Positions 28 through 14,585 of a stretch of DNA of 64,000 nucleotides are shown here, one piece after another. The notes below the pieces were generated by a model. The model saw only the letters and a list, made by a program, of their open reading frames with translations, was not told the origin of the DNA and did no database searches. The stretch's first letter is position 1; each line of letters starts with the position of its first letter. A program made the position numbers and the translations under genes. Source of the stretch: Chloroflexota bacterium (GTDB lineage Bacteria > Chloroflexota > Dehalococcoidia > Dehalococcoidales > UBA2162); NCBI GenBank assembly GCA_016190895.1, contig JACPPR010000096.1:1625-65624 (forward strand), written 5' to 3'.

Positions 28-240
28 ATGGCGAGAGTATTTGTCTATGACGGCAGAGAGCTGCCAGACCCAGACCCGAAGATGGCGGTCGAAGAAGTGC
101 GCCAGAACATGAGCTCTTTCTTCCCCGAGCTAGCCAACGCTGACACCGCTCACAGCAAGCGGAAAAGCAAGACCGACCCGGCAGTGGAAGACGACATCTA
201 CGAGTTCAAGCGGCGAGTCGGCACGAAGGGCCTGTCCTGA
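28..240 (+). CDS. PRTRC protein C-like small ubiquitin-like (beta-grasp) protein
   Basis: 70-aa ORF with GGAGG RBS upstream. Signature VFVYDGRELPDPDP...YEFKRRVGTKG matches my recollection of the PRTRC protein C family. A Gly lies 2 residues from the C-terminus. Confidence 0.7.
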   Translation: MARVFVYDGRELPDPDPKMAVEEVRQNMSSFFPELANADTAHSKRKSKTDPAVEDDIYEFKRRVGTKGLS

Positions 241-286
241 GCACATTCGCTTCGCTCAGTGTAAACTCCGCCGAAGGGGGTTAAGT

Positions 287-535
287 ATGACAGAATCCGC
301 AGATATTGAAAGAGTCGTCGCCGCTCTCAAGAAAGTCCCCGAAAAAAGGCTCCTGATAATCGACCTGGCTAACCGTATCCCGATGAAAGACGGCCAGCTC
401 GATTATGACGCGGTGACAGCAATACAGCCGGAAGTCAACATGGCCGTCGCCGAGGCCAAGATGTACGGAACGCAAACTCTGATGGCAGTAGACAGTCTGA
501 AGAGGCTAATCGCCCGGGGCAAGGACGATGTATGA
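287..535 (+). CDS. hypothetical protein
   Basis: 82-aa ORF co-directional with neighbours. Its stop overlaps the next start by 8 nt. No recognisable motif. Confidence 0.45.
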   Translation: MTESADIERVVAALKKVPEKRLLIIDLANRIPMKDGQLDYDAVTAIQPEVNMAVAEAKMYGTQTLMAVDSLKRLIARGKDDV

Positions 536-1496
536 CCTTGAAACCCTGAGGAGACTGAACGAGCAGGCTTGTTTAGCAGCCGCAGCCCTGGCGAGTAGCA
601 AAAAACCACCCTCCGTGCAGGCAGAGGAAAGGACAAAGGACACTGGCCCTCCTCCGGTATTCCCCCTGTCCGTTCTGGCGCGCAAGCTAATGAGAGGGCC
701 TCCCTCTCTGGCATACTTCATGGCGCTCCTGGAACAGGGCGAATCGTTTACGGGCTTCCGCGACCTTATCAGGGAGTACCTGCCGGAGCACGAGGTCAAT
801 ATCATGGCTGAAGACCTTGACCGTCGTGCGTGGAGATTTAGCCAGCTCTTTAGCCAGTATTACTTTCCTCTCCATGACGATACGCTTTCGGATGAATACG
901 GCATCGGCGACCTGCTGGGCGGCATACCATTCCAGCCGCTGGGCTTTTCATATGAGGGCTATCACGCGTTCGGCGACTTGAGGCAAGGTTACGTCATGGC
1001 TCTGGCGCTTGTAGAGTGCAACTGGGCGGAGGGAGACCCCCTGGGACTGTCAGATGACGAGGAAGACGCCGATGGAATACCAGGCCCTCGGATTCCCATC
1101 CTGGAGGCAGTCGGCGGTATCGTCGGGGAAGGACTTGTCCGCCTTATCCCAGCTAAGGGCTGGTCGGCTGAAGACTTGCACGAGATGACCGATAATACCG
1201 AGTTTGACGGCTTAGGCCTATTCGCGGACTGGGTAAACGGCAACACCGGCTGCATTCACCTCGATACCATGGGCGAGTCACTTGAGATGGAAGGGTTGCC
1301 AGAGTGGGACCCGGAAACAGTTGACGAAATGACCAATGACTGGCACCACGCTACTGAAATCCTGGACAAGATTCACCGGGTAGCGCTGCTGCTTGAGCAA
1401 GACCCGGAGCGCACCTTCAGAAAGCTCGTGGCTCTGCTCACCGACAACAAAGACCTGATTATACCCAAAGAACAGCTGCCTCTGCCTATTGGCTAG
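528..1496 (+). CDS. hypothetical protein in the position of PRTRC protein F; C-terminal QLPLPIG
   Basis: 322-aa ORF overlapping the upstream stop. Acidic. Ends ...KEQLPLPIG, a QLxLxL-type clamp-binding-like peptide. Confidence 0.6.
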   Translation: MYDLETLRRLNEQACLAAAALASSKKPPSVQAEERTKDTGPPPVFPLSVLARKLMRGPPSLAYFMALLEQGESFTGFRDLIREYLPEHEVNIMAEDLDRRAWRFSQLFSQYYFPLHDDTLSDEYGIGDLLGGIPFQPLGFSYEGYHAFGDLRQGYVMALALVECNWAEGDPLGLSDDEEDADGIPGPRIPILEAVGGIVGEGLVRLIPAKGWSAEDLHEMTDNTEFDGLGLFADWVNGNTGCIHLDTMGESLEMEGLPEWDPETVDEMTNDWHHATEILDKIHRVALLLEQDPERTFRKLVALLTDNKDLIIPKEQLPLPIG

Positions 1497-1524
1497 CATA
1501 GTGAATTCAGAAAGAAGGTAAGGA

Positions 1525-2214
1525 TTGGCAAAGAAGAAAACAACTGACTTCAAATGGGCCGTGCCTGACGAGCTCGGCATCCCTCCGGATAAGCTGAGAG
1601 CTCGCCTCGACTTCTACCACCAGGCCGTAGTGCTGAGTATCTACGACCAGGAAGTCTCGTCAACCAGGGTAGTCTCGGCAATGGACGTGGCCCACGCCCT
1701 GGCCAATGACCTGGCGTTCGGTACCGGGCTGCTGCCGCCCGGAACTATATGGTGGCGTAATACCCGGGGCGGGCCGGTGTACGCAATCTACGTAGAGCCG
1801 AAGATATGGAAGGTCGCCCTCGAGCTCGACATCAATTCAGCCCCACGGCGTTTTAATCTGCCTTTGCCCGGTCTTATATTCCTGTGCTCTCCCGGTAAAG
1901 CGCCCTGGGTCTATGCGGTGAAAAAGAAGCCGACGAAAGAGACGGACGAAGTTTACAATGCCCCTCTCTGCAACATCCACGAAAGCGGACTCTCCTGCGC
2001 CGGCACTCACAAGTACCCCACGAGAGTCGCCGATACGGTACAGTCTTTCTTCACTTCGTTCTTCACGGCGAGCGCCAACCTGAAGAACAGGTCTCAGCTC
2101 TACCCGAATAACATCGTCAGGCTCTGGGAGTCTCTGGACAACAAGAAGAAGTTTCCGGCCGCTGACTTGGTCCGTATTGGCAGCCTGAAAGACCTTATGA
2201 ACATGGAGATGTGA
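1525..2214 (+). CDS. PRTRC protein B-like protein, possible E2-like component
   Basis: 229-aa ORF with TTG start after AAGGTAAGGA. Cys/His patch APLCNIHESGLSCAGTH. Sits between the Ubl and the JAB/E1 genes. Confidence 0.55.
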   Translation: MAKKKTTDFKWAVPDELGIPPDKLRARLDFYHQAVVLSIYDQEVSSTRVVSAMDVAHALANDLAFGTGLLPPGTIWWRNTRGGPVYAIYVEPKIWKVALELDINSAPRRFNLPLPGLIFLCSPGKAPWVYAVKKKPTKETDEVYNAPLCNIHESGLSCAGTHKYPTRVADTVQSFFTSFFTASANLKNRSQLYPNNIVRLWESLDNKKKFPAADLVRIGSLKDLMNMEM

Positions 2215-2217
2215 TAC

Positions 2218-2901
2218 ATGAACATGGTCGGGTACTTAGTTAACGTCCCTGAGGGACTCTCCGGGGAGAAAGGTATCTACTACAACTATATTCTGGCTGC
2301 CAACGGCCTTTTCATCGAGGCCTCTAACCCAATGCTCGCCGCCCGGGTGCCGGTCGCCGAGTGCCAAGTTCGAGGGCTGGCGCCCATGAAGGCGAAGATT
2401 GCCCTGACGTACGGAAGTATTCCGCAGCACTTCTTTGACCTGGCTCTCGATACTTTTCTGGCCGCCCCTGATAAAGAGCGCTACGTTGCTGTGACGGCCG
2501 CTGCTGGATACCACCTTTACGTGCCGGTACAGGATGAGAGCGATGCCAGTGTCGTTTATGAGATGGGGGATTCGGTCGTGCTCGATATCCACTCCCATGG
2601 CCACATGCCGGCATTTTTCAGCCATCAAACGGACGATAAAGACGAGACCGGGCTGAAACTGTATGCCGTGGTCGGTAGATTGAACGCCACGCCGGTAGTC
2701 AGGCTGAGAGTCGGCGTCTACGGCTATTTTCACAGCCTGACCTGGCGTGATGTCTTTGACGGCTCCCTGACCAGGGCAGTCGAATCTGAAGAAGAGGAGG
2801 TGAAAACCGAAAGTGACCTACACGGTATCACTGGCCCGGATGCCCCAGAACTTCAGCATCATAGTAGTTGGTTGCGGTGGGACAGGTTCTTTCGTCGCTG
2901 A
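2218..2901 (+). CDS. JAB/MPN-like metallopeptidase (PRTRC protein A position)
   Basis: LDIHSHGHMPAFFSHQTDD gives HxHx7S followed by Asp. This is a near-canonical JAMM motif, with Asp one residue later than in Sx2D. Confidence 0.6.
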   Translation: MNMVGYLVNVPEGLSGEKGIYYNYILAANGLFIEASNPMLAARVPVAECQVRGLAPMKAKIALTYGSIPQHFFDLALDTFLAAPDKERYVAVTAAAGYHLYVPVQDESDASVVYEMGDSVVLDIHSHGHMPAFFSHQTDDKDETGLKLYAVVGRLNATPVVRLRVGVYGYFHSLTWRDVFDGSLTRAVESEEEEVKTESDLHGITGPDAPELQHHSSWLRWDRFFRR

Positions 2902-3664
2902 AGGCTTATGCCGGCTGCTTATTGGCAGCGATATACCTATCCTCCTTATAGACCCTGACCGGGTTGAGCAGCAAAACCTGATTCGCCAGAACTTTTACGA
3001 GGGCGACCTGGGCAAGTTCAAGTCTCAGGCGCTGGCGGAGAGGCTATCCCGGCAGTTCCACCGGCGCATCGCATACAGCGTCTACCCCTATATGCCTGAC
3101 CTTATCGGTGAGAACTGGGGCGGCGGCCTGCGCAGTCCTGCCATCCAGGGGATCATTATCGGCTGTGTTGATAACGCAGATGCCCGGCGGCAAATCGGCC
3201 AAACCCTGCGCTTCGGCAACTGGTGGCTCGATGCGGGTAATGGATTCTCATCGGGGCAGGTGCTGCTTGGCAGCGCTAAAAATCTTGAGCTTCTCGGCAG
3301 TCCTTTTATCAAAGAATCCGGAGAGGTAGAAGGGCTGCCCATGCCATCGTGGCAGCTCCCCAGTCTCCTGGCGCCGCCTACCAGGAAGAAACCTGAGACT
3401 CGGGATTGCGCCGAGGCGGTGGCCGCCGAAGAGCAGAGCCCCGTCATCAACCAGGCTATGGCCACGCTGGTACTGGAATTCATCTACCTGCTACTCAACA
3501 AAAAGCTTACCTGGATGGGGGCTTACATCGATTTGGATGCCGGCACCTTGCAGACAGTACGTGCCGAACCGGAGATAGTAGCCCGCATGTGTGGGGTGAA
3601 GGTCGACACCCTATTTAGGAATGATTGCTCTACAGGCAATCGATATTCACTTAGAAGGAGGTAA
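2813..3664 (+). CDS. ThiF/MoeB/E1-like adenylyltransferase (PRTRC ThiF family)
   Basis: IIVVGCGGTGS Rossmann motif and DPDRVEQQNLIRQ. GTG start 12 nt after GAGGAGG. Overlaps the JAB ORF by 89 nt. Confidence 0.85.
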   Translation: MTYTVSLARMPQNFSIIVVGCGGTGSFVAEGLCRLLIGSDIPILLIDPDRVEQQNLIRQNFYEGDLGKFKSQALAERLSRQFHRRIAYSVYPYMPDLIGENWGGGLRSPAIQGIIIGCVDNADARRQIGQTLRFGNWWLDAGNGFSSGQVLLGSAKNLELLGSPFIKESGEVEGLPMPSWQLPSLLAPPTRKKPETRDCAEAVAAEEQSPVINQAMATLVLEFIYLLLNKKLTWMGAYIDLDAGTLQTVRAEPEIVARMCGVKVDTLFRNDCSTGNRYSLRRR

Positions 3665-3667
3665 CCA

Positions 3668-4075
3668 ATGTCTGACGAAGAAGAGATCCCAGGTTCTGAA
3701 GAAGAAGAGGGTGGGGAAGAACAGGTGGCAATATCTACCGCACAGGAAGCGCCTGCAGCGGTGGCCGCGGATGCTCCTAACACGGAGAAGCCGTCCAATG
3801 AACTGAAGGTCGTAATCATACTGAAGGCCAACAAAGCGATGCTGGGAGTGCAGTCCCCCGATTGTGACCCGGTGTACAAGACCATGGAAGGCGACCTGGC
3901 CGCTGTTCTGAAGGTAGTACCTATACTGGTGGCTGATGCCAGGCTGAAGTGGTCCGCCGCTCCTCGGTATCCGAAGGCTGATTTACCCAAGCCGACAGCG
4001 CCTGCTACCACGACGCCCCCAGCGACAAGCAAGCCTGCTGCTAAAGCGGCCCCGGCGCAACCGAAATTCTTTTAG
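3668..4075 (+). CDS. acidic / Pro-Ala-rich protein (possibly PRTRC protein E-like), C-terminal QPKFF
   Basis: Strong RBS GAAGGAGG. Acidic N-terminus, PA/T-rich tail. Ends ...AQPKFF. Confidence 0.6.
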   Translation: MSDEEEIPGSEEEEGGEEQVAISTAQEAPAAVAADAPNTEKPSNELKVVIILKANKAMLGVQSPDCDPVYKTMEGDLAAVLKVVPILVADARLKWSAAPRYPKADLPKPTAPATTTPPATSKPAAKAAPAQPKFF

Positions 4076-4145
4076 GAGGCAACTATTATCTGCAAGCTTT
4101 TGGGCTGGCCTCCAAAGGCTGAATAAGTGGCCAAAAAGGAGGTGA

Positions 4146-5450
4146 ATGAAATTGGAAATTCAAGTTAACAAACTGAGAGAGCTGATGACCCTGATGAAAC
4201 CGGTAATCCCCAGGAAGTCTACCCTAAAGGTCACCGGCTATATCAGGGTCGGTGACGGCAAAGCGGTGGCGACCGACCTGGAAACCATGGTCATATACGA
4301 CCTACCCCAGGCTACCGAGCCTATGCTCCTGCCTTATACCTCCCTTGCCGATACCCTGAAGTACATACCCGGCAATACACTCAAGATTGAGGCGCAGGGT
4401 AGGAAGCTTTCCCTGGCATGGGACGGCGGCACTGCTGTCTACCCCACCGAGGATGTCGAGGACTTCCCGGTGTTGCCCGAACTGGAAACCAGAGCCGAGG
4501 GCTTAATCGATGGCGACGCTCTGGTATCGGCGATGCAGGCCGCTTTACCCTACACGGCAACTGATAGCCAGCGGCCGGTGCTTAGCGGCGTGACCCTGGT
4601 GTTGGGCAGCCCTATCGAGGTAGCCGCGGGAGACGGCTTCACCATGTCCCATCAGGTGCTGGGTCTTACCTTCCCTCTTGAAGAGAAAGTGATAGTACCA
4701 GCGCGCAGCGTATCCGTCCTGGGGCATGTCTTCGACAAGACGCCGCGGACACCGCCATCAACTGCCGATTCCTTGATATCGGTAATTACCGCCAAGCGGC
4801 AGATCCACATGGCTCTCATCGGCGAAAACAAGCTCAAGGTCGACTTCGGCGAGTCGGCATCCGTCGTCATCAACCTGATACAAGGGAACCCGCCCGAATG
4901 GCTGCAGCTAATCCCCAAGGGACAACCTACCCTGCAGAGCCATCTCTTCGCCCCGCAGTTCGAAGCGGCGGTCAAACGGGTCCGGGACATCGCAAAGGAT
5001 GGTAGCGGTATTGTCCGCATGGCGTTCGCTGACGGCAAGCTGACCGTCTCCGCAGTAGGAGAGGAGCAGGAAATCAGGGCCACCCTGGACGTCATAAGCA
5101 CTCAGGGCGAGCCGGGGAGAACGGCCATCAACTATGCCTACCTTCTCCGTTACCTTACCGGCAAGCAGGGTATCATCACTTTATCCCAATACGACAAGAC
5201 CGGCCCGCTAGCCTTCGAGTACCAGAATTCGCCGCGTGTCCTTATCATGCCCATGTTCGTACAATGGGGCGATGAGGCGGTGGCCACCAAGGAGCCGGAA
5301 CCAGAACCTGAGGCGGTTGAGGAAAATCCGGAAGGGGAGGAACCAGAGGCATCTCTCGAAGAGGAGACTCCTCAGGGAGAGACGGAAGAAACTGTTACCG
5401 CAGCAGCGAAACCAGCCGGCAAGAAACGCCGCAGAAAGACAACTCCCTAA
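4146..5450 (+). CDS. DNA polymerase III beta sliding clamp homologue (element-encoded) with charged C-terminal tail
   Basis: The N-terminus MKLEIQVNKLRELMTLMKPVIPRKSTLKVTGYIRV...ATDLETM and RPVLSGVTLV...AAGDGF resemble DnaN. An extra Glu-rich then KKRRRK tail follows. Confidence 0.8.
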   Translation: MKLEIQVNKLRELMTLMKPVIPRKSTLKVTGYIRVGDGKAVATDLETMVIYDLPQATEPMLLPYTSLADTLKYIPGNTLKIEAQGRKLSLAWDGGTAVYPTEDVEDFPVLPELETRAEGLIDGDALVSAMQAALPYTATDSQRPVLSGVTLVLGSPIEVAAGDGFTMSHQVLGLTFPLEEKVIVPARSVSVLGHVFDKTPRTPPSTADSLISVITAKRQIHMALIGENKLKVDFGESASVVINLIQGNPPEWLQLIPKGQPTLQSHLFAPQFEAAVKRVRDIAKDGSGIVRMAFADGKLTVSAVGEEQEIRATLDVISTQGEPGRTAINYAYLLRYLTGKQGIITLSQYDKTGPLAFEYQNSPRVLIMPMFVQWGDEAVATKEPEPEPEAVEENPEGEEPEASLEEETPQGETEETVTAAAKPAGKKRRRKTTP

Positions 5451-5539
5451 TCTCGACCCGGGAAGGCGGGGGTGCTGGGGCAGGCAAGCTCCAGCACCCC
5501 TCTTTATGAGTGATTTACATACCATGAAAGGAGGTTTTA

Positions 5540-5739
5540 TGAAAATAACTTCTTACGTAGAACTAACACCGGCCCAGGAAAAGACCATTGAGGCACTGGA
5601 AACAGTTACCGTCAGGACAGCGCTTATCAAACCGGCTGTCGTGGCCACGATTCGTACCTTCGCCGCGCAGGAAGTCAGGATAACTATTGCTGCCGATGGA
5701 GGAATTGAAGACGCGGAGGTTCAATATGACAGCCTCTGA
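5540..5739 (+). CDS. hypothetical small protein
   Basis: ATG preceded by AAAGGAGG. The longer track ORF (5236..) overlaps the clamp gene in another frame and looks spurious. Confidence 0.45.
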
Positions 5740-6214
5740 ACGAAAAGTTGAGGGATGGATAGACGACATAGTCGGCGCCCTCTTCGACCCCATCATAGTA
5801 ACGCCCGGTGGCTGGGGAGATGACTTGCCCGAGTGGTTAAAAACAAGGGTTACTCTTGAGCGCCTTGCCGAAAACATAGTAGCAACCAGGGAAGGTAGAG
5901 AAATAACCGCTACTGATGCCGAAGCCGCCTGTTACCTCTTTACTGCCTCGCTCACCGCGCCGATCGGAGGCGACTGGACCCAGATATACCTGTACGTTGC
6001 CGGCGGCGAGTTGAAGGACAAAATGCCGGAAGACATAAAGGTCGAGTCGTTAACCGAGAGCCAGTGGCGCGACTTAAAAGAGTTGAAGAACTGGATTTAC
6101 CGGCAGCGGGTGAAGCACCGCAAGGAAAAGGCACACGGAGAGCGCCGTGAAACCAAAGGAGAAGCTAATACAAAAGAGCTGGAAACCAGGCCGATCCAGC
6201 CAACATTCTTCTGA
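5726..6214 (+). CDS. hypothetical protein, C-terminal QPTFF
   Basis: ATG at 5726 after GGAGGT. Overlaps the previous stop. Ends ...RPIQPTFF. Confidence 0.55.
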   Translation: MTASERKVEGWIDDIVGALFDPIIVTPGGWGDDLPEWLKTRVTLERLAENIVATREGREITATDAEAACYLFTASLTAPIGGDWTQIYLYVAGGELKDKMPEDIKVESLTESQWRDLKELKNWIYRQRVKHRKEKAHGERRETKGEANTKELETRPIQPTFF

Positions 6215-6333
6215 GGTTAGTCGGTCATTCTGCAGAGATAGCGAAGCACACTAAGTGTCGGATTCTGTACGGGTCAGTGTTCTTGAATATGACTCAACTA
6301 TATCTTCTTGCGCGTGTCCTGTTCAATTCAAAT

Positions 6334-6957
6334 CTATGTATGAAGTAATTCTGCTTCAGACAATAACCCTTGATTTTTGATAAAAGCGCTTACAGTCATT
6401 CTGTTTACGCCAAAGATTCTCGCAATCTCACATTTCGATACTTTTCGCTTTAAGAGGACCTGTATCACACTCTCTTGACCAGACAATTTGACCTTACCCG
6501 ATTTACTGCCTATCGGTCTGCCAAGTACAACACCTTCAGCACGTTTGCGAGCGAGTGCCTCTTTGGTTCTCTGACTGATGAGGTTTCGCTCTATTTCAGC
6601 CGATAATCCAAAAGCAAAGGCCAAAACCTTGCTCTGTATGTCCTCACCCAAGCGATAATTGTCCTTTATCGTCCAAACCTTGCATTCTTTACTCATGCAA
6701 AGGTTCAAGATTTCCATAATCATGAATAGATTTCGACCCAAACGTGACAACTCAGCGCAAATAATCAGATCGTCTTTTTGGACTTTCCTGAGTAATTTCC
6801 CAAGCTCGCGTTTGTCATAATTCTTTGTTCCGCTGATAGTTTCCTCAATCCAGCCATCGATTTGAATATTGTTTCGACTCACAAAATTCTCAATCTCAAA
6901 TCGCTGGTTCTCAACTGTTTGTTTCTCGCTGCTCACTCGGATGTATCCGTAATTCAT
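6334..6957 (-). CDS. small serine recombinase (resolvase/invertase, Hin/Gin-like)
   Basis: MNYGYIRVSSEKQ catalytic-Ser motif. C-terminal HTH (KCEIARIFGVNRMTV). RBS GGAGTGAGGAG before the ATG at 6957. The upstream part of the track ORF is repeat-derived. Confidence 0.85.
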   Translation of the reverse strand: MNYGYIRVSSEKQTVENQRFEIENFVSRNNIQIDGWIEETISGTKNYDKRELGKLLRKVQKDDLIICAELSRLGRNLFMIMEILNLCMSKECKVWTIKDNYRLGEDIQSKVLAFAFGLSAEIERNLISQRTKEALARKRAEGVVLGRPIGSKSGKVKLSGQESVIQVLLKRKVSKCEIARIFGVNRMTVSAFIKNQGLLSEAELLHT

Positions 6958-6991
6958 GGTCTCCTCACTCCTTTTCTTGTTAATATATAAC

Positions 6992-7082
6992 GAGCGTTTA
7001 TATTGAGCGAAACAGTGCGGCCAGCCGTTTTGATTCCAACGATAGTTGGACAATCCTTTCCCCTATTGAGCAAAGCATAAAG
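6992..7082. repeat. inverted repeat IR-A, left arm
   Basis: 91 bp. Reverse-complement of 8693..8783 with 2 mismatches (aligned by eye). Confidence 0.85.
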
Positions 7083-7196
7083 CGAAAAATTGAGGCTGTT
7101 GGCATTCCACTCAAAAAGTGGGATGTAAATATTTATCGAGGTGTTCTTACGGGCTATAACGACGCATTTATCATTTCTGGTAAGAAAAAAGACGAG

Positions 7197-7298
7197 CTTA
7201 TTGCTGCCGACCCAAAATCTGCTGAAATTATACGACCGATTCTACGTGGCAGGGACATCAAACGGTATCACTATGAGTTCGCGGATTTGTGGCTGATA
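7197..7298. repeat. inverted repeat IR-B, left arm
   Basis: About 100 bp, reverse-complement of 8477..8578. Perfect 53-bp core at 7209..7261. Confidence 0.85.
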
Positions 7299-7457
7299 GA
7301 TACTCACAACGGGATACGTGAGAAGGGGATACCACCTGTCAATGTGAATGGATACCCTGCTATCAAAGCACACCTGAATCAATTTTATGATGCGCTTGAG
7401 AAAAGGCTTGACAAGGGTGATACGCCCTACAATCTGCGCAGTTGTGCTTATACGGAC

Positions 7458-7480
7458 GATTTTTCCAAGCAGAAAATTGT
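7458..7480. repeat. inverted repeat IR-C, left arm
   Basis: The 23-bp sequence gatttttccaagcagaaaattgt is the perfect reverse-complement of 8265..8287. It encodes DDFSKQKIVW in both cassettes. Confidence 0.75.
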
Positions 7481-7882
7481 TTGGGCTGAACTAGCCAGGA
7501 CAGGGAATGCTTTTACAATTGATACGTTGCATTCCATTGTCTTAAACACATCCTATGTCCTTACATCATCCAGTGACGATATCAACGAATTGAAGTATCT
7601 ATCTGGAATGTTAAATAGCATGACGACGATGTTTTATATGAACTTAATATCTAGTAAATTCGATCAAACAGGATGGCGATGGTTAAAACAATTTGTAGAA
7701 CGGTTACCTATTCCCAAACTATCTTATAATGAGCAACAGCCATTCATCAAGATGGTTGATGAAATTCTCGATTTGAAACGAAAACACCTTGACACCACAA
7801 CTTTAGAAAGAGACTTGGACAAAATGATTTATAGATTGTTCGACTTTTCGGACGAAGAGATACAAGCAATAGAAGCGTGAGC

Positions 7883-10800
7883 TCACTTTCCCATTAAGAA
7901 AGTTCTCTCTTCTTCATTAAATCCATACAAGTCACAAATCATATCATCCAGCCTTTGTTCTTCAACAGTAGTCGGATTGTTCTGACTTTTTGCCTCTAAG
8001 ATCAGACTGACACATGAAATGAAAGGCGTCTTTTCAGCTTCACTCAATATGGGAACCGGAAGTTTCTCTATAAACATCGGCTTATATTCAAAGTACCCGC
8101 CATTCCTTGTGACGCCAAGGCCTCGAACATAAAAATCTGCTACTTTAGAATTCAGCACGGACAGCAAATATCTATCTCCAGGGACAATCATGGTGGCCGG
8201 AGCACTGATGAAGTATAGTTCTCCAACAAGTGCATATTGAGCACGCAGACAAAGGTTTCCCCAGACAATTTTCTGCTTGGAAAAATCGTCCCAATAGCTT
8301 ATGCTATCCTGTGTTTCAAACCATTTGTTATTCGTTTTTTTCCGCGCAGTAACTATTTGGCCACCCACAATATGCTTTTCCCCAGTCTGCCGAAGGCGTT
8401 CTATTCCAAATGAAAGAAGATATTCTTTTACCGATGGATATTGCTCAATATCGTACTTTAGGCTTGGAAAGGTAGCTATCAACCACAAATTCGCGAACTC
8501 ATAGTGATACCGCTTGATGTCCCTGCCACGTAGAATCGGTCGTATAATTTCAGCAGATTTTGGGTCTGCAGCAATAAGTTCATCTCGTTTTTTCCGATCA
8601 ATAATGAAAGCCTCGTTGAATCCAGTTTTTATCCCGTAGTTTATATGTACATCCCACTCCTTGAGTGGAACACCAGCAGTATCAATTTTTCCCTTTATGC
8701 TTTGCTCAATAGGGGAAAGGATTGCCCAACTATCGTTGGAATTAAAACGGCTGGCCGCACTGTTTCGCTCAATATAAACGCTCAAATTGTTCAAGCAATC
8801 ATCCTTGATCACGCACGCTTCGGTTTGACCCTTGTTCTTGCCCTTCTCAAAAATCATAATGCTGACATCCACCGTTGCTGAATCAAAGATTCTCTGCCCC
8901 GCAAAATCTATCAGACGCAGCGGATTGGTCTTGTGGGCAAAGAATTCCCGAATCGCCTTACCATAACCAGCGCGTATCCATTTGTTGGAAGTGATGAATG
9001 ATAAAACTCCGCTATCAGCAAGAAGGCCGTATCCCCTCTCATAAAAAAGGCAATAAATATCACCCATGCGCGCAAAGGATTGATACTGCATCTTTTCCAG
9101 ACGGTCAGCCTCTTGCTGCACAGATTGGAGTTGGATATAAGGCGGATTGGCTATCACCACATCAAATCCATCACTTACGCCAAACATCCACCCGGTGTCG
9201 AACCAATCACATCTTTTGTATGAGAAGGGGTCCCATTCGGCGAGCATGCGAGTCTGGGTCGTATCTTTGGATTCTATCTTCTTGGCAGCTCCCGTGAGAT
9301 CGGTCTTTACTGCGACTAGCATTTTTCTCGCGTGTTCGCTTAGTTGTGCCTGTACCGCTTTGAATTCGTGCTTGATAGCCTCTTTGTTTTCGCTATCGGC
9401 AAAATAACTCTTCCTGAGTGTCGCCAATTTGCTAATCAATTCTTTGTTTTCCATTAATCCCATACCAGTGATCTCGGGTAAGCCGATAAGCGTATTTGCC
9501 GCTACGAACTTGAATTCCAGATTGGGTAAAGGCTCGATGCCTCTGTTTCCCTCATTGTCCAGAACCATCTCATCCACAACGAGAGATAGGAAACACCGCA
9601 GTTTGGCAATCTCCACGGCGATGGGCTGGATGTCCACGCCATAGATAGAGTCACGGATAATCATCAGCTTGCGGATATACGCCCAGTTTTCCCGCTTGAC
9701 GTTCTTCTCCACAGTCTGGCGGACGATACTATCTAGCGTGCTCAGATACTGCTTTCTCCAGATTTCAAGCTTCGGGTCAACCCTCTCCAGCGCGAGCAAC
9801 ATCCGGTGCAGGATGCCCATCGGGAAAGCTCCCGAACCGCAGGCTGGATCTATAATTTTAATTTCCTTCAGAGCTGTAACTACGCTGTTCTTCTGCTCAT
9901 CTGTAAGCTCTACACCCTCATCTTCATACGAGAGCAAAGCAGCAAGGTTGTCCTCAGATATGGCGGTCTTCGTGAGCAGGTACTGCTTCAAAGACTGCTC
10001 CACCATATAATCAACAATGACGCGCGGGGTGTAATAGCTACCGGTTGCCTTGCGGGCGGTCTCGCCCGTCTCTGGCACCACCTCTGCCAGCAGGTTCTCA
10101 AAGATTCTGCCGAGCATTTCTGGGTCGACCGAGACTTCCGCGTCCACAGTGCTGTTTTCATCTATGGTGAAGTTATACTGTTCCAGAACGCTGAAGAAAT
10201 CCTTGAACCAGGTATCCGGTATTTTAAGAGCGTCAATCAGTGATCGCTTATAAAAATCGTTCTCGTGCGGCTCGAACAGCCCGCCGTTCAAGAACGGAAC
10301 TTTGTCTGCCTCCGGAACCGCAACTGGCTTCCGTTCTTTAACCGGCGTATTCATCAAGCCGAAGAAGAGCGGCTCCAGGACGGCATGGTAATAGCCGAGA
10401 TGCGTACTTGCTGCCGCAGTCGAAAGCGCGCTGTCAGAAATAAGCGGGATGCCCGCCGCTGACTTCTTATGCTTCAAGAACCAGCAAAATATCGCCCGGC
10501 CGATAAGCCTGACCGCGAATTCTTCATACGCCTTTTTGTCACCATCGTCGACTGACGACAATGTCAGCTCTTTTGGAAAGCCGCCTCTGCCGGTGAGGCG
10601 GTAGAAATAACGGGCAATTTCCTCATAGAATAGCTTATTGACCTTCTCCACGGAGAAAGCGTCTTTGACAATATCCAAACTGGCAAAGCTACATTCACCG
10701 ATTCTCTTTTTGAAGGTGTTGTTGGTCTGGCCGCTGCTGACAAAGTAAGTGAAGCGGCGGAAATTGCTCCAGACCGTGCGCGCGGCGTCCGGCGTGCCGT

Positions 10801-11143
10801 AAACCAGGCTCAGGCGGAAATTGCCGGACTGGTCGCTGAAGACGAACATGCCGGCGTCATACCGCATATATTGTTTGAGGATTTTCCTGGCCTTTTCGTA
10901 CTGGGCTTTCTTGCCGCTTCGCTCGGTTAAACCCCCGGCGATACTGGCCGTGACCACTACCAGCCTTTCGGCGGGACTGAAGTTGATTTCGCCAATTGCG
11001 TGGAAGCCTGAGAACTCGTCATCATCGTATTCAGAGAGGTCGTCTTCCGCTTCGGCATAGCAGTTAGTTGCATTCTGGAAGAATTCGTTCAAGTAGCCCT
11101 CTACGCCTTTATCGATGACTTTTTGCAGCAGTTTCTTGCTCAT
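7883..11143 (-). CDS. large N6-adenine DNA methyltransferase with C-terminal specificity region (Eco57I / PglX / DrmMI-like)
   Basis: 1086 aa. Motif I IIDPACGSGAFPMG and motif IV VVIANPPYIQ. The start overlaps the helicase stop (ATGA). Confidence 0.85.
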   Translation of the reverse strand: MSKKLLQKVIDKGVEGYLNEFFQNATNCYAEAEDDLSEYDDDEFSGFHAIGEINFSPAERLVVVTASIAGGLTERSGKKAQYEKARKILKQYMRYDAGMFVFSDQSGNFRLSLVYGTPDAARTVWSNFRRFTYFVSSGQTNNTFKKRIGECSFASLDIVKDAFSVEKVNKLFYEEIARYFYRLTGRGGFPKELTLSSVDDGDKKAYEEFAVRLIGRAIFCWFLKHKKSAAGIPLISDSALSTAAASTHLGYYHAVLEPLFFGLMNTPVKERKPVAVPEADKVPFLNGGLFEPHENDFYKRSLIDALKIPDTWFKDFFSVLEQYNFTIDENSTVDAEVSVDPEMLGRIFENLLAEVVPETGETARKATGSYYTPRVIVDYMVEQSLKQYLLTKTAISEDNLAALLSYEDEGVELTDEQKNSVVTALKEIKIIDPACGSGAFPMGILHRMLLALERVDPKLEIWRKQYLSTLDSIVRQTVEKNVKRENWAYIRKLMIIRDSIYGVDIQPIAVEIAKLRCFLSLVVDEMVLDNEGNRGIEPLPNLEFKFVAANTLIGLPEITGMGLMENKELISKLATLRKSYFADSENKEAIKHEFKAVQAQLSEHARKMLVAVKTDLTGAAKKIESKDTTQTRMLAEWDPFSYKRCDWFDTGWMFGVSDGFDVVIANPPYIQLQSVQQEADRLEKMQYQSFARMGDIYCLFYERGYGLLADSGVLSFITSNKWIRAGYGKAIREFFAHKTNPLRLIDFAGQRIFDSATVDVSIMIFEKGKNKGQTEACVIKDDCLNNLSVYIERNSAASRFNSNDSWAILSPIEQSIKGKIDTAGVPLKEWDVHINYGIKTGFNEAFIIDRKKRDELIAADPKSAEIIRPILRGRDIKRYHYEFANLWLIATFPSLKYDIEQYPSVKEYLLSFGIERLRQTGEKHIVGGQIVTARKKTNNKWFETQDSISYWDDFSKQKIVWGNLCLRAQYALVGELYFISAPATMIVPGDRYLLSVLNSKVADFYVRGLGVTRNGGYFEYKPMFIEKLPVPILSEAEKTPFISCVSLILEAKSQNNPTTVEEQRLDDMICDLYGFNEEERTFLMGK
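8265..8287. repeat. inverted repeat IR-C, right arm
   Basis: Partner of 7458..7480. Confidence 0.75.
8477..8578. repeat. inverted repeat IR-B, right arm (inside the MTase gene)
   Basis: Partner of 7197..7298. Perfect core at 8514..8566. Confidence 0.85.
8693..8783. repeat. inverted repeat IR-A, right arm (inside the MTase gene)
   Basis: Partner of 6992..7082. Confidence 0.85.
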
Positions 11144-14100
11144 TTCTGTTCCCCGATATTTTCAATGGCGACAATGACCTCTTTATCCAATTGCCCGATT
11201 TTCTGCTTTATTTTAGCCAGATAATCCGGGCCGAGGTCCAGTTGCAGGCTGCCGAGTTCTTTTTGAACTATGGCAATCTTCGCTTCATCTCCAGCATCTG
11301 CCGCTAGGTTAGCGATGCGTCTTAAAGTGTAATCGGAAAGCGTCTTATAATCCTCGATGTCCTCCACCAGGTTCAACAGGAGTTGGCGGAACTCACGATA
11401 GTTATCTGTCTTGTCCGCTAATAGAGCTTTCACCTTTAAGTGAGCTTTTTTCTCGACGCTCAGCTCGCTGGAAGGCACGCCGGACTTTTCTTTCAGGTCC
11501 TTGATTCTGGTGTATTTCTCCCAGAAGCCGTCACTGAGCGGCAGAGCCTTTTCATCCTTGCCGCATTTAATCAACGGCAATGCTTCTTCAAACAGCAGCT
11601 CGGCCGGTTCTTTGGTTTCTCCTGACATGCCCCTGATAAATAGTCCCATCCCTTTCTTGATAAAGACGGTCAGTGAGTATTCATCGTTTGATTTGGCTAC
11701 TTTCACGCGGGAGGGGAGGGTGGCGATCCTCTGCTTGGTTGCTTCATCGATTTCAGCATACATTCTGCGTATGCCGGTCTGGAAACTCTCCAGCTCCAGC
11801 CCGTCCGGATTTTGCTGAATCTTCTCGAATAATCCGGAGGCCGTGGGTTCTTCGTCTGCTTCAAATACCTTTGAATCCTCCCCAAGGGTATTGTGAATCA
11901 TAAACATCTTCTCTGTGGCGATTTGTCTGCTCCGCACGATCGATGCGCCCTGGAGGGTAGGGAAGAAGTTGTAAACATAGAGGTTATCGAAGACCTTCTT
12001 ACTGATGCGGTTGATTCTGCCGACGCGCTGGACAACTCGGGTGGGATTCCAGGGAATATCGAGATTAATCACGGCGCCGGCGCGGTTAAGATTCACGCCC
12101 TCTGACATTTTATCTGTGGTAATCAGAATCTGATATTTGTTGTTCTGGTTTTTATACGTGGTATCGAAGTTGCTTATGATTTCTGTAGCTTTCGTCTTAT
12201 TCAAATCCCCTTTGACACTGATAATCTGGCCGCTGAATTTCTTTTCCAGGCGAGCCTCGACATACTTAACCGTATCGGCGTATTCGGAGAAGACAATTAC
12301 CTTTCTTATCGGCTCAGTGGCTTTGTCCTTTTGCTTCAGAATCTTGGATAGTTCAGTTTCCAAAGCAGCTAATTTCGGGTCATTATCTACCAATTTCAGG
12401 GTATCCAGTTCATCGAGGATTCTTCCGAAGAGGGCAATATCGGCTTCAATATCTGCCAGGAACACCTTCTTTTGTTTGAATTCTTTATTCAAATCATAGA
12501 CCTTGTAGTGTTTGGGGAAATTGCCCGAGGTGAGCATCTGTTCGAACTTCTCCAACTCCTCGGCAATATCATCCTCGTCATCCTGGTATATCCGGTCGAT
12601 AAGCTCGCGGTCGAGGATATATTTCTCTCCGCTGTTAACGATGAAGGTTTGGACCATTTCGGTGATGCGTTTGAAGTTTTCCATACTCTGCCGGAACGCG
12701 CCAAAGGAACTTTCGAACCTTTTCACCAGCAACCGTCTCATAAAGTCATACAAGTTCTTCTGTATCAACGCTGCCCGGTTTTCCTCTTCGTCAAGTGAGC
12801 CGGGGTCCTTGCCAACAATACCAGCTTCATACTCGAAGGGGCGGTAGATGGTGCCTTTGAAATCGCCGCCCTCACCGAAATATTTTGAAATAACGCGGTC
12901 GTAAAACTCCGACTGCTCCGGGGTCAACGCGAAAAAAGCTTCACACGGGTCTTTGACCTCGGACAACTCATAGATTTCTTTTGAATATACCGGGTCTTTC
13001 TTTAAGTCAATGCGGTTGCGCCGGATGGTGACCGGCGAGATGACCGATTTGATGTCATTGGCCAGGTATTTAGATCGTGCAGTTACCCGTTTCAGGTCAA
13101 TCCTATCTGACTCAAACAGAGCTTTATAGTCCGCTAGGGCGCTTTCGCGCCTGTCTTTATCCGTGGAATTGTGGTTCTTCTTGATATTTGAGAGTCGCCT
13201 GAAAGTTTGGCTATACTGCCGGAATCTTTCATCCAGATTGTTAGACAAGATAAGACTTGATTTACCCGGCACGGTAAACAGCTTGAGCATCGAGAAAATG
13301 TCCGCGGGTGTGTTGTTGAAAGGGGTGGCAGTGAGCAAGATAACGATTTTATTGCGGCAGATATCACTCAAAATTGAGTATGCTTCTGTATCCTGGTTAC
13401 GGAATCGGTGCGCCTCGTCGATGATTACCACTTCGAAGTCGCTCTCATTCTGCACCAGCTTGAGCGTGTCTCTCAAGGTCTCCAAACCGCAACTTCTGAT
13501 TTCCCATCCGTTAAGCTCGAAATCTTGCCTGTATTTGTCCCAGCCGGTCCGGATGCCGTCATCAACCCCGCCCTTGAGAGCTGGCGGGCATATGATTAAG
13601 CCCCTCTTGTACAGGCACTTAGCGACCATTCCTGCAATAATGCTTTTCCCAAGACCAACGACGTCCGATATTATGACGCCATTTTCTTTTTCGATAATAC
13701 TCAAAGCTTGCGCGACAGCATTTACCTGGTAAGCATATTTCTTGTACCCGTTTTTCTCCAGAAGCTGGAAGACGTAATCCTTGATGTCTTTGGGCTTATG
13801 CAATTCCAGATACGTTTTTAGAACAAAAGCAAAGGCTTCGTAAGGAGTTACTTCAGCTATTAGTGTGGCTTCTCTCAGTAGTTTTACTAATTCCCATCTA
13901 AAAGCATCGTCTTCGGTGATTTTGACGGCTTTCGTCCAGAGGTCATCGAAATAATCCTCTGCCTCCTGAGTTCCGTAATCACTGATTTCAACATTAAACT
14001 CATTTTGCTGGCCTAACCCGGCCCGAGTGAGATTGCTACTTCCGGTGATGAAACAACACGGTTTCAAGTCTGCATGGTCGTCCTTCATGTTGAAGAGGTA

Positions 14101-14520
14101 CAATTTGGCATGATTAGGTTCACGAGTCTTCTTGATGATCAGTCTGTTGTCCAGAATGGCCTGAACAAAGAACTTGGCTTGTTCATAGAATTCTTCAGTA
14201 TCAAACTCATCCGAATTGACGGACTTGACGATCGATTCTTTGAACAGTTGTTGATGTTTGTTCCCATCGATTTTACCAACGGCTCCGTACTCAACAAGGC
14301 CGTAGCCTTGTTTATCGACACTGAGACCCACAAGAACCTTGGTAACTACGTCGGGATTGTGCTTGATAGCCTCATACAATTCTCTAATACCGGAGAAATA
14401 GAAGAAACCGACCAGGAATTTCAACTCCTTGCTGAAACCAATGAGCTTTGAGATTCTATCCTTTAGGATCTTGCTGCCCGCATTATTGATGAAGGTGTTT
14501 TGTGACCTTGAGTCCGACAT
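11140..14520 (-). CDS. PLD-family nuclease domain fused to an SNF2-family helicase
   Basis: N-terminal HKD motif NHAKLYLF...ITGSSNLT. SNF2 motifs DVVGLGKSIIAG, DEAHRFRN, LLTATPFNN and VVQRVGRINRI. ATG 14520 lies after AAGGA. The ORF stays open to TTG 14559. Confidence 0.85.
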   Translation of the reverse strand: MSDSRSQNTFINNAGSKILKDRISKLIGFSKELKFLVGFFYFSGIRELYEAIKHNPDVVTKVLVGLSVDKQGYGLVEYGAVGKIDGNKHQQLFKESIVKSVNSDEFDTEEFYEQAKFFVQAILDNRLIIKKTREPNHAKLYLFNMKDDHADLKPCCFITGSSNLTRAGLGQQNEFNVEISDYGTQEAEDYFDDLWTKAVKITEDDAFRWELVKLLREATLIAEVTPYEAFAFVLKTYLELHKPKDIKDYVFQLLEKNGYKKYAYQVNAVAQALSIIEKENGVIISDVVGLGKSIIAGMVAKCLYKRGLIICPPALKGGVDDGIRTGWDKYRQDFELNGWEIRSCGLETLRDTLKLVQNESDFEVVIIDEAHRFRNQDTEAYSILSDICRNKIVILLTATPFNNTPADIFSMLKLFTVPGKSSLILSNNLDERFRQYSQTFRRLSNIKKNHNSTDKDRRESALADYKALFESDRIDLKRVTARSKYLANDIKSVISPVTIRRNRIDLKKDPVYSKEIYELSEVKDPCEAFFALTPEQSEFYDRVISKYFGEGGDFKGTIYRPFEYEAGIVGKDPGSLDEEENRAALIQKNLYDFMRRLLVKRFESSFGAFRQSMENFKRITEMVQTFIVNSGEKYILDRELIDRIYQDDEDDIAEELEKFEQMLTSGNFPKHYKVYDLNKEFKQKKVFLADIEADIALFGRILDELDTLKLVDNDPKLAALETELSKILKQKDKATEPIRKVIVFSEYADTVKYVEARLEKKFSGQIISVKGDLNKTKATEIISNFDTTYKNQNNKYQILITTDKMSEGVNLNRAGAVINLDIPWNPTRVVQRVGRINRISKKVFDNLYVYNFFPTLQGASIVRSRQIATEKMFMIHNTLGEDSKVFEADEEPTASGLFEKIQQNPDGLELESFQTGIRRMYAEIDEATKQRIATLPSRVKVAKSNDEYSLTVFIKKGMGLFIRGMSGETKEPAELLFEEALPLIKCGKDEKALPLSDGFWEKYTRIKDLKEKSGVPSSELSVEKKAHLKVKALLADKTDNYREFRQLLLNLVEDIEDYKTLSDYTLRRIANLAADAGDEAKIAIVQKELGSLQLDLGPDYLAKIKQKIGQLDKEVIVAIENIGEQK

Positions 14521-14585
14521 TGATTGAGTCCTTCGTAGTAAGCTATGTTCCGAAATCAAGTCCCTCTGATTATCGTAATTATACT

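Follow-up and report, generated by a model that had tools for sequence, protein, structure and literature searches.

Why would an integrative element carry a beta sliding clamp of its own, and why do three otherwise unrelated genes beside it end in peptides that resemble clamp-binding motifs? These questions are raised by positions 28-6214 of the window analysed here, a stretch of 64,000 nucleotides (C80:1625-65624) of a 2.09-Mb Dehalococcoidales metagenome-assembled genome. Its genes form a single operon within an integrative element of Chloroflexota. The operon consists of a ubiquitin-like cassette of the PRTRC type (ParB-related, ThiF-related cassette; models TIGR03734-03742), with a ubiquitin-like protein (Ubl), E2, JAB and E1, to which are added the clamp and the open reading frames (ORFs) ORF3, ORF7 and ORF9. 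From the sequences and structural models we propose that ORF3, ORF7 and ORF9 dock via their C-terminal tails into the peptide cleft of a beta clamp, chiefly the element's own, and that the DNA-loaded clamp would be the point at which the cassette assembles. We put the probability of this reading at roughly 75%.

The module comprises ten genes, all on the + strand, which overlap or are spaced by no more than about 85 nt. The genes and motifs are the following.

28..240, + strand: ubiquitin-like protein (PRTRC_C / Prok_Ub; TIGR03738 48.7 bits against a cut-off of 45.95; PF14454 E 4e-13)
287..535, + strand: ORF2, small conserved protein between Ubl and ORF3 (kept in loci L005, L006, L085, L088 and L094)
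528..1496, + strand: ORF3, 322 aa, in the PRTRC_F position, with the tail PKE-QLPLPI-G (position and size as PRTRC_F of a Cupriavidus plasmid)
1473..1490, + strand: QLPLPI of ORF3, clamp-binding-like motif of the hexapeptide type (QLxLxL), read from the sequence
1525..2214, + strand: E2-like protein (Prok-E2_D / PRTRC_B; PF14460 E 4e-18)
2218..2901, + strand: JAB peptidase (PRTRC_A; TIGR03735 E 2e-17; PF14464)
2813..3664, + strand: E1-like ThiF adenylyltransferase (PRTRC_ThiF; TIGR03736 E 4e-37; PF00899)
3668..4075, + strand: ORF7, candidate clamp adaptor, 135 aa, seen in alignments as a domain of about 65 aa, a Pro/Thr/Ala-rich linker and a terminal QPKFF
4058..4072, + strand: QPKFF, terminal pentapeptide of ORF7 (sequence and relatives)
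4146..5450, + strand: beta sliding clamp of the element (DnaN paralogue), 434 aa (TIGR00663 E 2e-22; phrog_947 E 3e-42)
5268..5447, + strand: disordered clamp tail past ...MPMFVQW, acidic and then basic (predicted local distance difference test score, pLDDT, below 50 in residues 380-434)
5536..5739, + strand: ORF8, small conserved protein (homologues in L004, L088, L093 and C72)
5726..6214, + strand: ORF9, 162 aa, with a helical domain followed by a long basic helix, then a disordered stretch and the terminal QPTFF (AlphaFold2, AF2, model)
6197..6211, + strand: QPTFF, terminal pentapeptide of ORF9 (sequence and relatives)

The start of ORF9 is taken as the ATG, as in its homologues; a TTG at 5687 lies further upstream. 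ORF2, ORF3, ORF7, ORF8 and ORF9 matched no family in Pfam, NCBIfam or PHROGs, and neither did 61 relatives of ORF7 that were scanned for known families. The genome carries a second copy of the module on contig C72, whose dnaN is 85% identical at the DNA level, and a normal chromosomal dnaN on contig C92 (C92:59-1192). The first-pass annotation had described the region as a clamp module. Since the Ubl, E2, JAB and E1 families are identified, that module is the downstream half of a PRTRC-type conjugation cassette.

Are the tails of a recognizable kind? Two forms of beta-clamp-binding motif are well known, the pentapeptide QL[SD]LF of Pol II, Pol III alpha, Pol V and MutS, and the hexapeptide QLxLxL, which reads QLVLGL in Pol IV and QLSLPL in Hda. 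The earlier assignment of one tail to the QLxLxL type and of two to the Qxx[LMF]F type was borne out: ORF3 ends in EQLPLPIG (in full ...PKEQLPLPIG), ORF7 in AQPKFF (...APAQPKFF) and ORF9 in IQPTFF (...RPIQPTFF). ORF7 and ORF9 both carry the pentapeptide form Q-x-x-hydrophobic-F at a disordered terminus, preceded by the Pro/Thr/Ala-rich linker in ORF7 and by a segment predicted to be disordered in ORF9. Each accessory protein appears to be built of a folded domain, a flexible segment and a short C-terminal peptide of a known clamp-binding class. Such endings are rare in the genome. Among its 3844 ORFs with a length of 100 aa or above, just four end in Qxx[LMF]F, and three of these are ORF7 and ORF9 of the window element and ORF7 of the C72 copy. 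A QLxLx[LIVMF] peptide no more than two residues from the C-terminus is found in just two genome ORFs, both of them copies of ORF3. The tails are not due to chance.

All three tails proved to be conserved at the C-termini of orthologues. The ORF7 family comprises 331 clusters at 90% identity, and 118 of the best 120, which were read for tails, end in QPKFF. A profile search of 1.84 billion representatives returned 522 clusters at 50% identity; among the best 150 an exact Qxx[LMF]F end is present in 78, and the remaining representatives mostly have xxx[LMF]F ends or are fragments. In the ORF7 alignments (A1 and A4) the domain of about 65 aa is conserved and the linker varies freely, and the terminal Phe is invariant in the 61 sequences picked for A4. 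Other Chloroflexota classes have the rearranged order DnaN-ORF7-Ubl-ORF3-E2-JAB-E1, and their ORF7 tails read QLSLFG, QLTLFG or KLTLF. The QLSLFG-type tails match the published clamp-binding consensus QL-x1-2-LF (PMC7261172).

For ORF9 the family is larger (941 clusters), and a Q-x-x-[FL]-F peptide ends all of the best 120, with VQPSFF in 100 of them. More distant relatives end in QPALFDF, QPSYFDLIGEA, QITFF, QPRLL or RPTLF. Among 14 complete relatives in the fetched loci, 10 carry Q-P-x-[FLY]-F at the terminus or within six residues of it, and 3 others have a related tip (QITFF, QPRLL, RPTLF). The remaining one, the copy in L006 (8392-8900), has a frameshift in an A-rich run, and its +1 frame ends in ...ETEAVQPSFF followed by a stop. 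Either the sequence is in error here or the gene was disrupted recently. The AF2 model of ORF9 (pLDDT 75.5) is all-helical with residues 144-156 disordered, and Foldseek found no neighbour of it below E 1 in PDB or BFVD. For ORF3, 50 of 54 full-length relatives (38-90% identity) have Q[LM]x[LM]x[LIFMV] near the end, most commonly as QLPLPL and with position 3 freely variable. More distant lineages show QLELAL, QMELAL, QLVLIP or xLPLxxA. From L005 and L006 the ORF3 tail had seemed unconserved, an interpretation that was rejected after the wider searches yielded these 50.

The tailed genes are also linked to the clamp gene. An ORF7 relative lies directly upstream of the clamp in 17 of the 18 loci that were retrieved with the clamp as bait and hold one, a set that is biased by the bait, reaches from 85% down to about 32% clamp identity and includes one locus from a Desulfobacterales genome. 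In the remaining locus, L005, one gene lies between. Wherever the contig extends far enough, E1 precedes ORF7, with the exception of L101. Loci retrieved with ORF3 as bait also include cassettes with a clamp (L181, L182, L183, L186, L187, L195, L196 and L197). The clamp is a regular member of the Chloroflexota version of the cassette. The pairing is also seen with no PRTRC gene nearby, as ORF7 and clamp in L101 and as ORF9 and clamp in L100. Between the ORF9 relative and the element-type clamp of L100 lies a gene (L100:3941-4936) for a 331-aa protein ending in QKSLFDL, a fourth kind of protein with a clamp-binding-like tail beside such a clamp. No polymerase, primase or clamp loader was found within 10 kb in L195 or L196. 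The viral contig collection held no clamp relatives, and the plasmid collection held no close ones, only four chromosomal-type dnaN matches at 23-28% identity.

Does the encoded clamp have a cleft that could receive these peptides? As the first-pass annotation had it, the gene at 4146..5450 encodes a DnaN homologue with an extra charged tail, which can now be described as a three-domain beta clamp followed by a disordered tail. The three domains are present in the AF2 model (predicted template modelling score, pTM, 0.69), and its top Foldseek matches in PDB are E. coli beta, with template modelling (TM) scores of 0.82-0.85 normalised by target and an E value of 1e-26. The protein has diverged as a paralogue: its identity to the chromosomal clamps of Dehalococcoidia is about 28%, and its score against TIGR00663 (79.5 bits) is below the equivalog cut-off of 137.65. 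Chromosomal clamps stop at ...MPMFVQW; in the element clamp residues 380-434 continue as a disordered segment that is acidic and then reads KKRRRK. Similar ends (KRKRKRKS, PAKRKRKR) occur in many element-type clamps, and other element-type clamps lack such an end. The C-terminus of the clamp borders the peptide cleft, so this tail could regulate access to it.

Element-type clamps also share an insertion in domain II (DKTPRTPPS...; window 4740-4800, residues ~199-217, low pLDDT). Pro200 never varies among 19 element-type clamps, and a conserved Lys217 stands in place of the Glu or Asp of chromosomal clamps. The insertion loop is a candidate interaction or modification site. An internal QSHLF of the clamp (residues 264-268) was considered as a motif and rejected because it is located in a predicted beta strand of domain III.

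The cleft residues were mapped on an alignment of 24 element-type and 58 chromosomal clamps, using a list of E. coli residues that we take to line the cleft (R152, L155, T172, G174, P242, N320 etc.). Of the E. coli clamp residues, V247 and M362 are confirmed as part of the cleft (PMC7261172). Across the 24 element-type clamps the equivalents of R152, L155, G174, P242, N320, Y323, M362, P363 and M364 are nearly invariant, and the majority-residue fraction is 0.77 in the cleft columns versus 0.53 across the protein. Judged from this alignment, the hydrophobic cleft that lies between domains II and III and takes in the C-terminal MPM segment is intact and conserved above average.

The tails and the cleft vary together. 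Tails ending in FF occur only with clamps that have Gly at the T172 equivalent (12 of 15 such loci), and this Gly is usually joined by Met, Leu and Ile at the equivalents of 177, 360 and 361. Where Ala or Cys stands at the T172 equivalent the tails end in LF, MF or LL, and FF is found in 0 of 8. The variant of the host clamp is Ala/Leu/Val/Val. This co-variation fits a cleft widened for a bulkier residue and suggests that the tails may be tuned to the private clamp.

Several observations weigh against docking of the tails chiefly into the element's own clamp. Two concern the tails themselves: Pro stands at motif position 2 of QPKFF and QPTFF instead of the usual Leu, and the C72 copy of ORF9 has 14 extra residues past its QPSFF. 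The ORF3 tail is absent in four more distant Dehalococcoidia-type lineages (L005, L006, L085 and L088). The complete genome G197 has a cassette with a tailed ORF7, and its single dnaN is 1.5 Mb away; in G284, ORF7 and ORF9 are direct neighbours and no clamp separates them. For the co-variation of tail and cleft the nominal Fisher p (3e-4) overstates the evidence, since the independent lineages are few and shared ancestry inflates the significance. Finally, element and host clamps resemble each other closely in their clefts, which would allow the tails to bind either one.

The best-surviving alternative follows the last of these points and holds that the tails mainly target the host chromosomal clamp, by which host forks would be hijacked, blocked or sensed, while the element clamp has a separate role, for example in element replication or as a decoy. 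Besides the very similar cleft residues, it can call on the tailed ORF7 or ORF9 without a private clamp in G197 and probably G284, and on canonical PRTRC plasmids, which have no dnaN nearby and yet encode, in the position of PRTRC E (the E slot), proteins with a disordered linker and a hydrophobic tip. However, ORF7 adjoins the clamp in nearly all loci, even outside PRTRC in L101, the FF tails go with a Gly/Met/Leu/Ile form of the cleft that is not seen in the host clamp, and no polymerase, primase or loader within 10 kb (L195, L196) is at hand to give the clamp a separate role in replication. We therefore regard targeting mainly of the host clamp as unlikely, and it is not exclusive of docking into the private clamp. 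Given G197, G284 and also L009, which holds an element-type clamp without a cassette, the private clamp is usual and not obligatory. Presumably the tails can also use the host clamp, and we infer a preference for the private one.

A second alternative takes the peptides as a different short linear motif, either a docking site for E1, E2 or JAB or a degradation tag, with a convergent likeness to clamp-binding motifs. The Pro at position 2 is indeed unusual, and a Ubl cassette is a place where docking motifs of substrates and enzymes are expected. But the tails are carried by three unrelated families, their distant relatives converge on the exact QLSLF and QLxLPL forms of polymerases and Hda, and the ORF7-clamp and ORF9-clamp pairs persist without genes for E1, E2 or JAB, all of which makes this explanation improbable. 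That the resemblance arises from chance or from low-complexity composition of protein ends has a next to negligible probability: the motifs are short, at 5-6 residues, but the genome-wide background is about 1 in 3800 ORFs and the tail stays fixed across hundreds of clusters while the adjacent linker varies freely.

Docking into a beta clamp, chiefly the element's own, remains the reading that we prefer. The first-pass annotation had proposed a clamp-centred protein hub specific to this element. The hub itself is upheld by the conserved tails and the intact cleft; the word "specific" is not, given the absence of a private clamp in G197. As the module is a Ubl/E2/JAB/E1 cassette, the hub belongs to a ubiquitin-like system and is not a stand-alone replication module. 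We envisage that the host clamp loader would place the element clamp on DNA, because within 10 kb in L195 and L196 there is no gene for a loader or polymerase. The three tails would then insert into the hydrophobic cleft where domains II and III of the clamp meet. In this way ORF3, ORF7 and ORF9 would be concentrated on element DNA, and through them the Ubl machinery.

That machinery looks functional, judging from its conserved residues. The best matches of Ubl, the E2-like protein, JAB and ThiF are all PRTRC models, with only C (TIGR03738) above the curated cut-off. Relatives of the Ubl end in ...VG[TV]KG with a conserved terminal Gly, at which most of them stop; the window Ubl ends in GTKG-LS, and the LS after the Gly implies trimming, plausibly by JAB. 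In the E2, the Cys of the C-x-G-x-H signature shows a conservation of 90% or more across 10 relatives, and the H-x-H...S...D motif of JAB is conserved. The genes for JAB and E1 share 89 nt (2813-2901), which they read in different frames.

A more far-reaching version is possible but doubtful, and we offer it as speculation. Here, with the DNA-loaded clamp as platform, the element's E1 and E2 would attach the Ubl to the clamp itself or to one of the proteins docked on it (ORF7, ORF3 or ORF9), and JAB would release it again. FF tails paired with the Gly/Met variant of the cleft would serve as a private docking code and spare the host clamp. The cassette, perhaps PRTRC in general, would be a bacterial counterpart of PCNA-centred ubiquitin signalling.

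Upstream of the module, a RadC-like JAB protein and a DUF1281-like protein are encoded, and related elements have a tyrosine recombinase a few kilobases upstream. Past 6214 the G+C content is lower and an unrelated defence island begins; next to the module, 6334-14559 encodes a serine invertase of the Mpi type, a large N6-adenine methyltransferase and a PLD-SNF2 helicase, which belong to this separate island. Homology between the two element copies stops exactly at the final ORF9 codon (...TTCTTC; window 6197-6230 compared with the reverse complement of C72 11260-11310). After ...TTCTTC the window has TGA and the C72 copy continues for 14 residues as QPSFF-YQKMFRIGKGLNLH. The stop codon of ORF9 therefore marks either a boundary of the module or a recombination breakpoint.

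Taken singly, the ingredients are already known: clamp-binding motifs, clamp genes on mobile elements and PRTRC cassettes. Our literature searches on PRTRC, ubiquitin-like systems and sliding clamps returned no paper that links PRTRC to clamps, no description of a Ubl cassette that combines a clamp of its own with three partners bearing conserved tails, and no functional study of PRTRC-type cassettes. The E1 alone, as query, matches 510 plasmid records. Our analysis suggests that the PRTRC-type operon, long unexplained, works on DNA-loaded clamps, and the clamp with its three tailed partners points to a concrete site of action and to candidate substrates or adaptors.

How does the locus compare with systems that are known? 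Like the beta-clamp motifs of polymerases and Hda, the motifs of the ORF tails start with Gln, have two hydrophobic residues at 4/5 or 4/6 and sit at the very end of a disordered segment; distant ORF7 proteins read QLSLFG and most ORF3 relatives QLPLPL. In contrast to those motifs, the clade of the window has Pro at position 2 and a Phe-Phe pair, more like the end of a PCNA-interacting protein (PIP) box. The carriers also differ, being small proteins without a family match and not polymerases or repair enzymes. If the pairing of FF tails with a Gly-widened cleft is real, it would represent a natural case of orthogonal specificity between a clamp and its partners.

The Ubl/JAB/E1/E2 operon type was described computationally in 2006 by Iyer, Burroughs and Aravind, with no clamp mentioned (PMC1779556). 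On a Cupriavidus plasmid the PRTRC order is ParB-E-C-small-F-B-A-ThiF. The core of the window cassette, C-small-[322 aa]-B-A-ThiF, has the same order and is likewise borne by a mobile element. Unlike the canonical cassette it adds the dnaN paralogue, ORF7, ORF8 and ORF9 downstream of E1. No ParB was found among the scanned upstream ORFs of C80 and C72 or within 10 kb in L195 and L196, and the models for PRTRC D, E and F (TIGR03739, TIGR03741, TIGR03742) gave no hidden Markov model match even at E up to 10. Homology of ORF7 to PRTRC_E and of ORF3 to PRTRC_F was tried by hhalign comparison of the families and rejected (probability < 1%). As these profile comparisons are insignificant, we do not call ORF7 and ORF3 homologues of E and F, and the likeness is in position and architecture only.

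Four proteobacterial PRTRC plasmid loci (L165, L191, L192 and L193) have no dnaN nearby. Like ORF7, with which they share no detectable homology, canonical E-slot proteins have a domain followed by a long linker of low complexity that leads to a hydrophobic tip. In four proteobacterial plasmids the tips read SKSLFF, TDFQLF, NLDLAASF and TDLASLL, which is looser than a strict clamp-binding motif. A Bacillus licheniformis plasmid (L194:10231-10620) encodes a Ubl-like protein that ends in ...GAKKG and has QLALFD in a disordered N-terminal extension; its gene lies in a ThiF-containing cassette near recA and ssb.

Phages and mobile elements with clamps of their own offer a second comparison. T4 gp45 is a phage sliding clamp, and the element clamp matches phrog_947, annotated as "DNA polymerase processivity factor". 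As in those systems, the element has its own clamp, with partners that would dock through C-terminal peptides; unlike them, the clamp lies in a Ubl cassette with no cognate polymerase or loader nearby.

The third comparison is with PCNA. PCNA is modified at K164 by Rad6-Rad18, and substrates with a PIP degron are handled by CRL4-Cdt2. No component of the bacterial set is orthologous to the eukaryotic enzymes, and the resemblance is one of analogy only. Within that analogy, the locus would resemble ubiquitin and SUMO signalling on PCNA in bringing together a clamp, docking peptides and a set of E1, E2, Ubl and deconjugase, here in one operon, and conjugation to the clamp or its partners, if true, would be a bacterial parallel to PCNA ubiquitylation.

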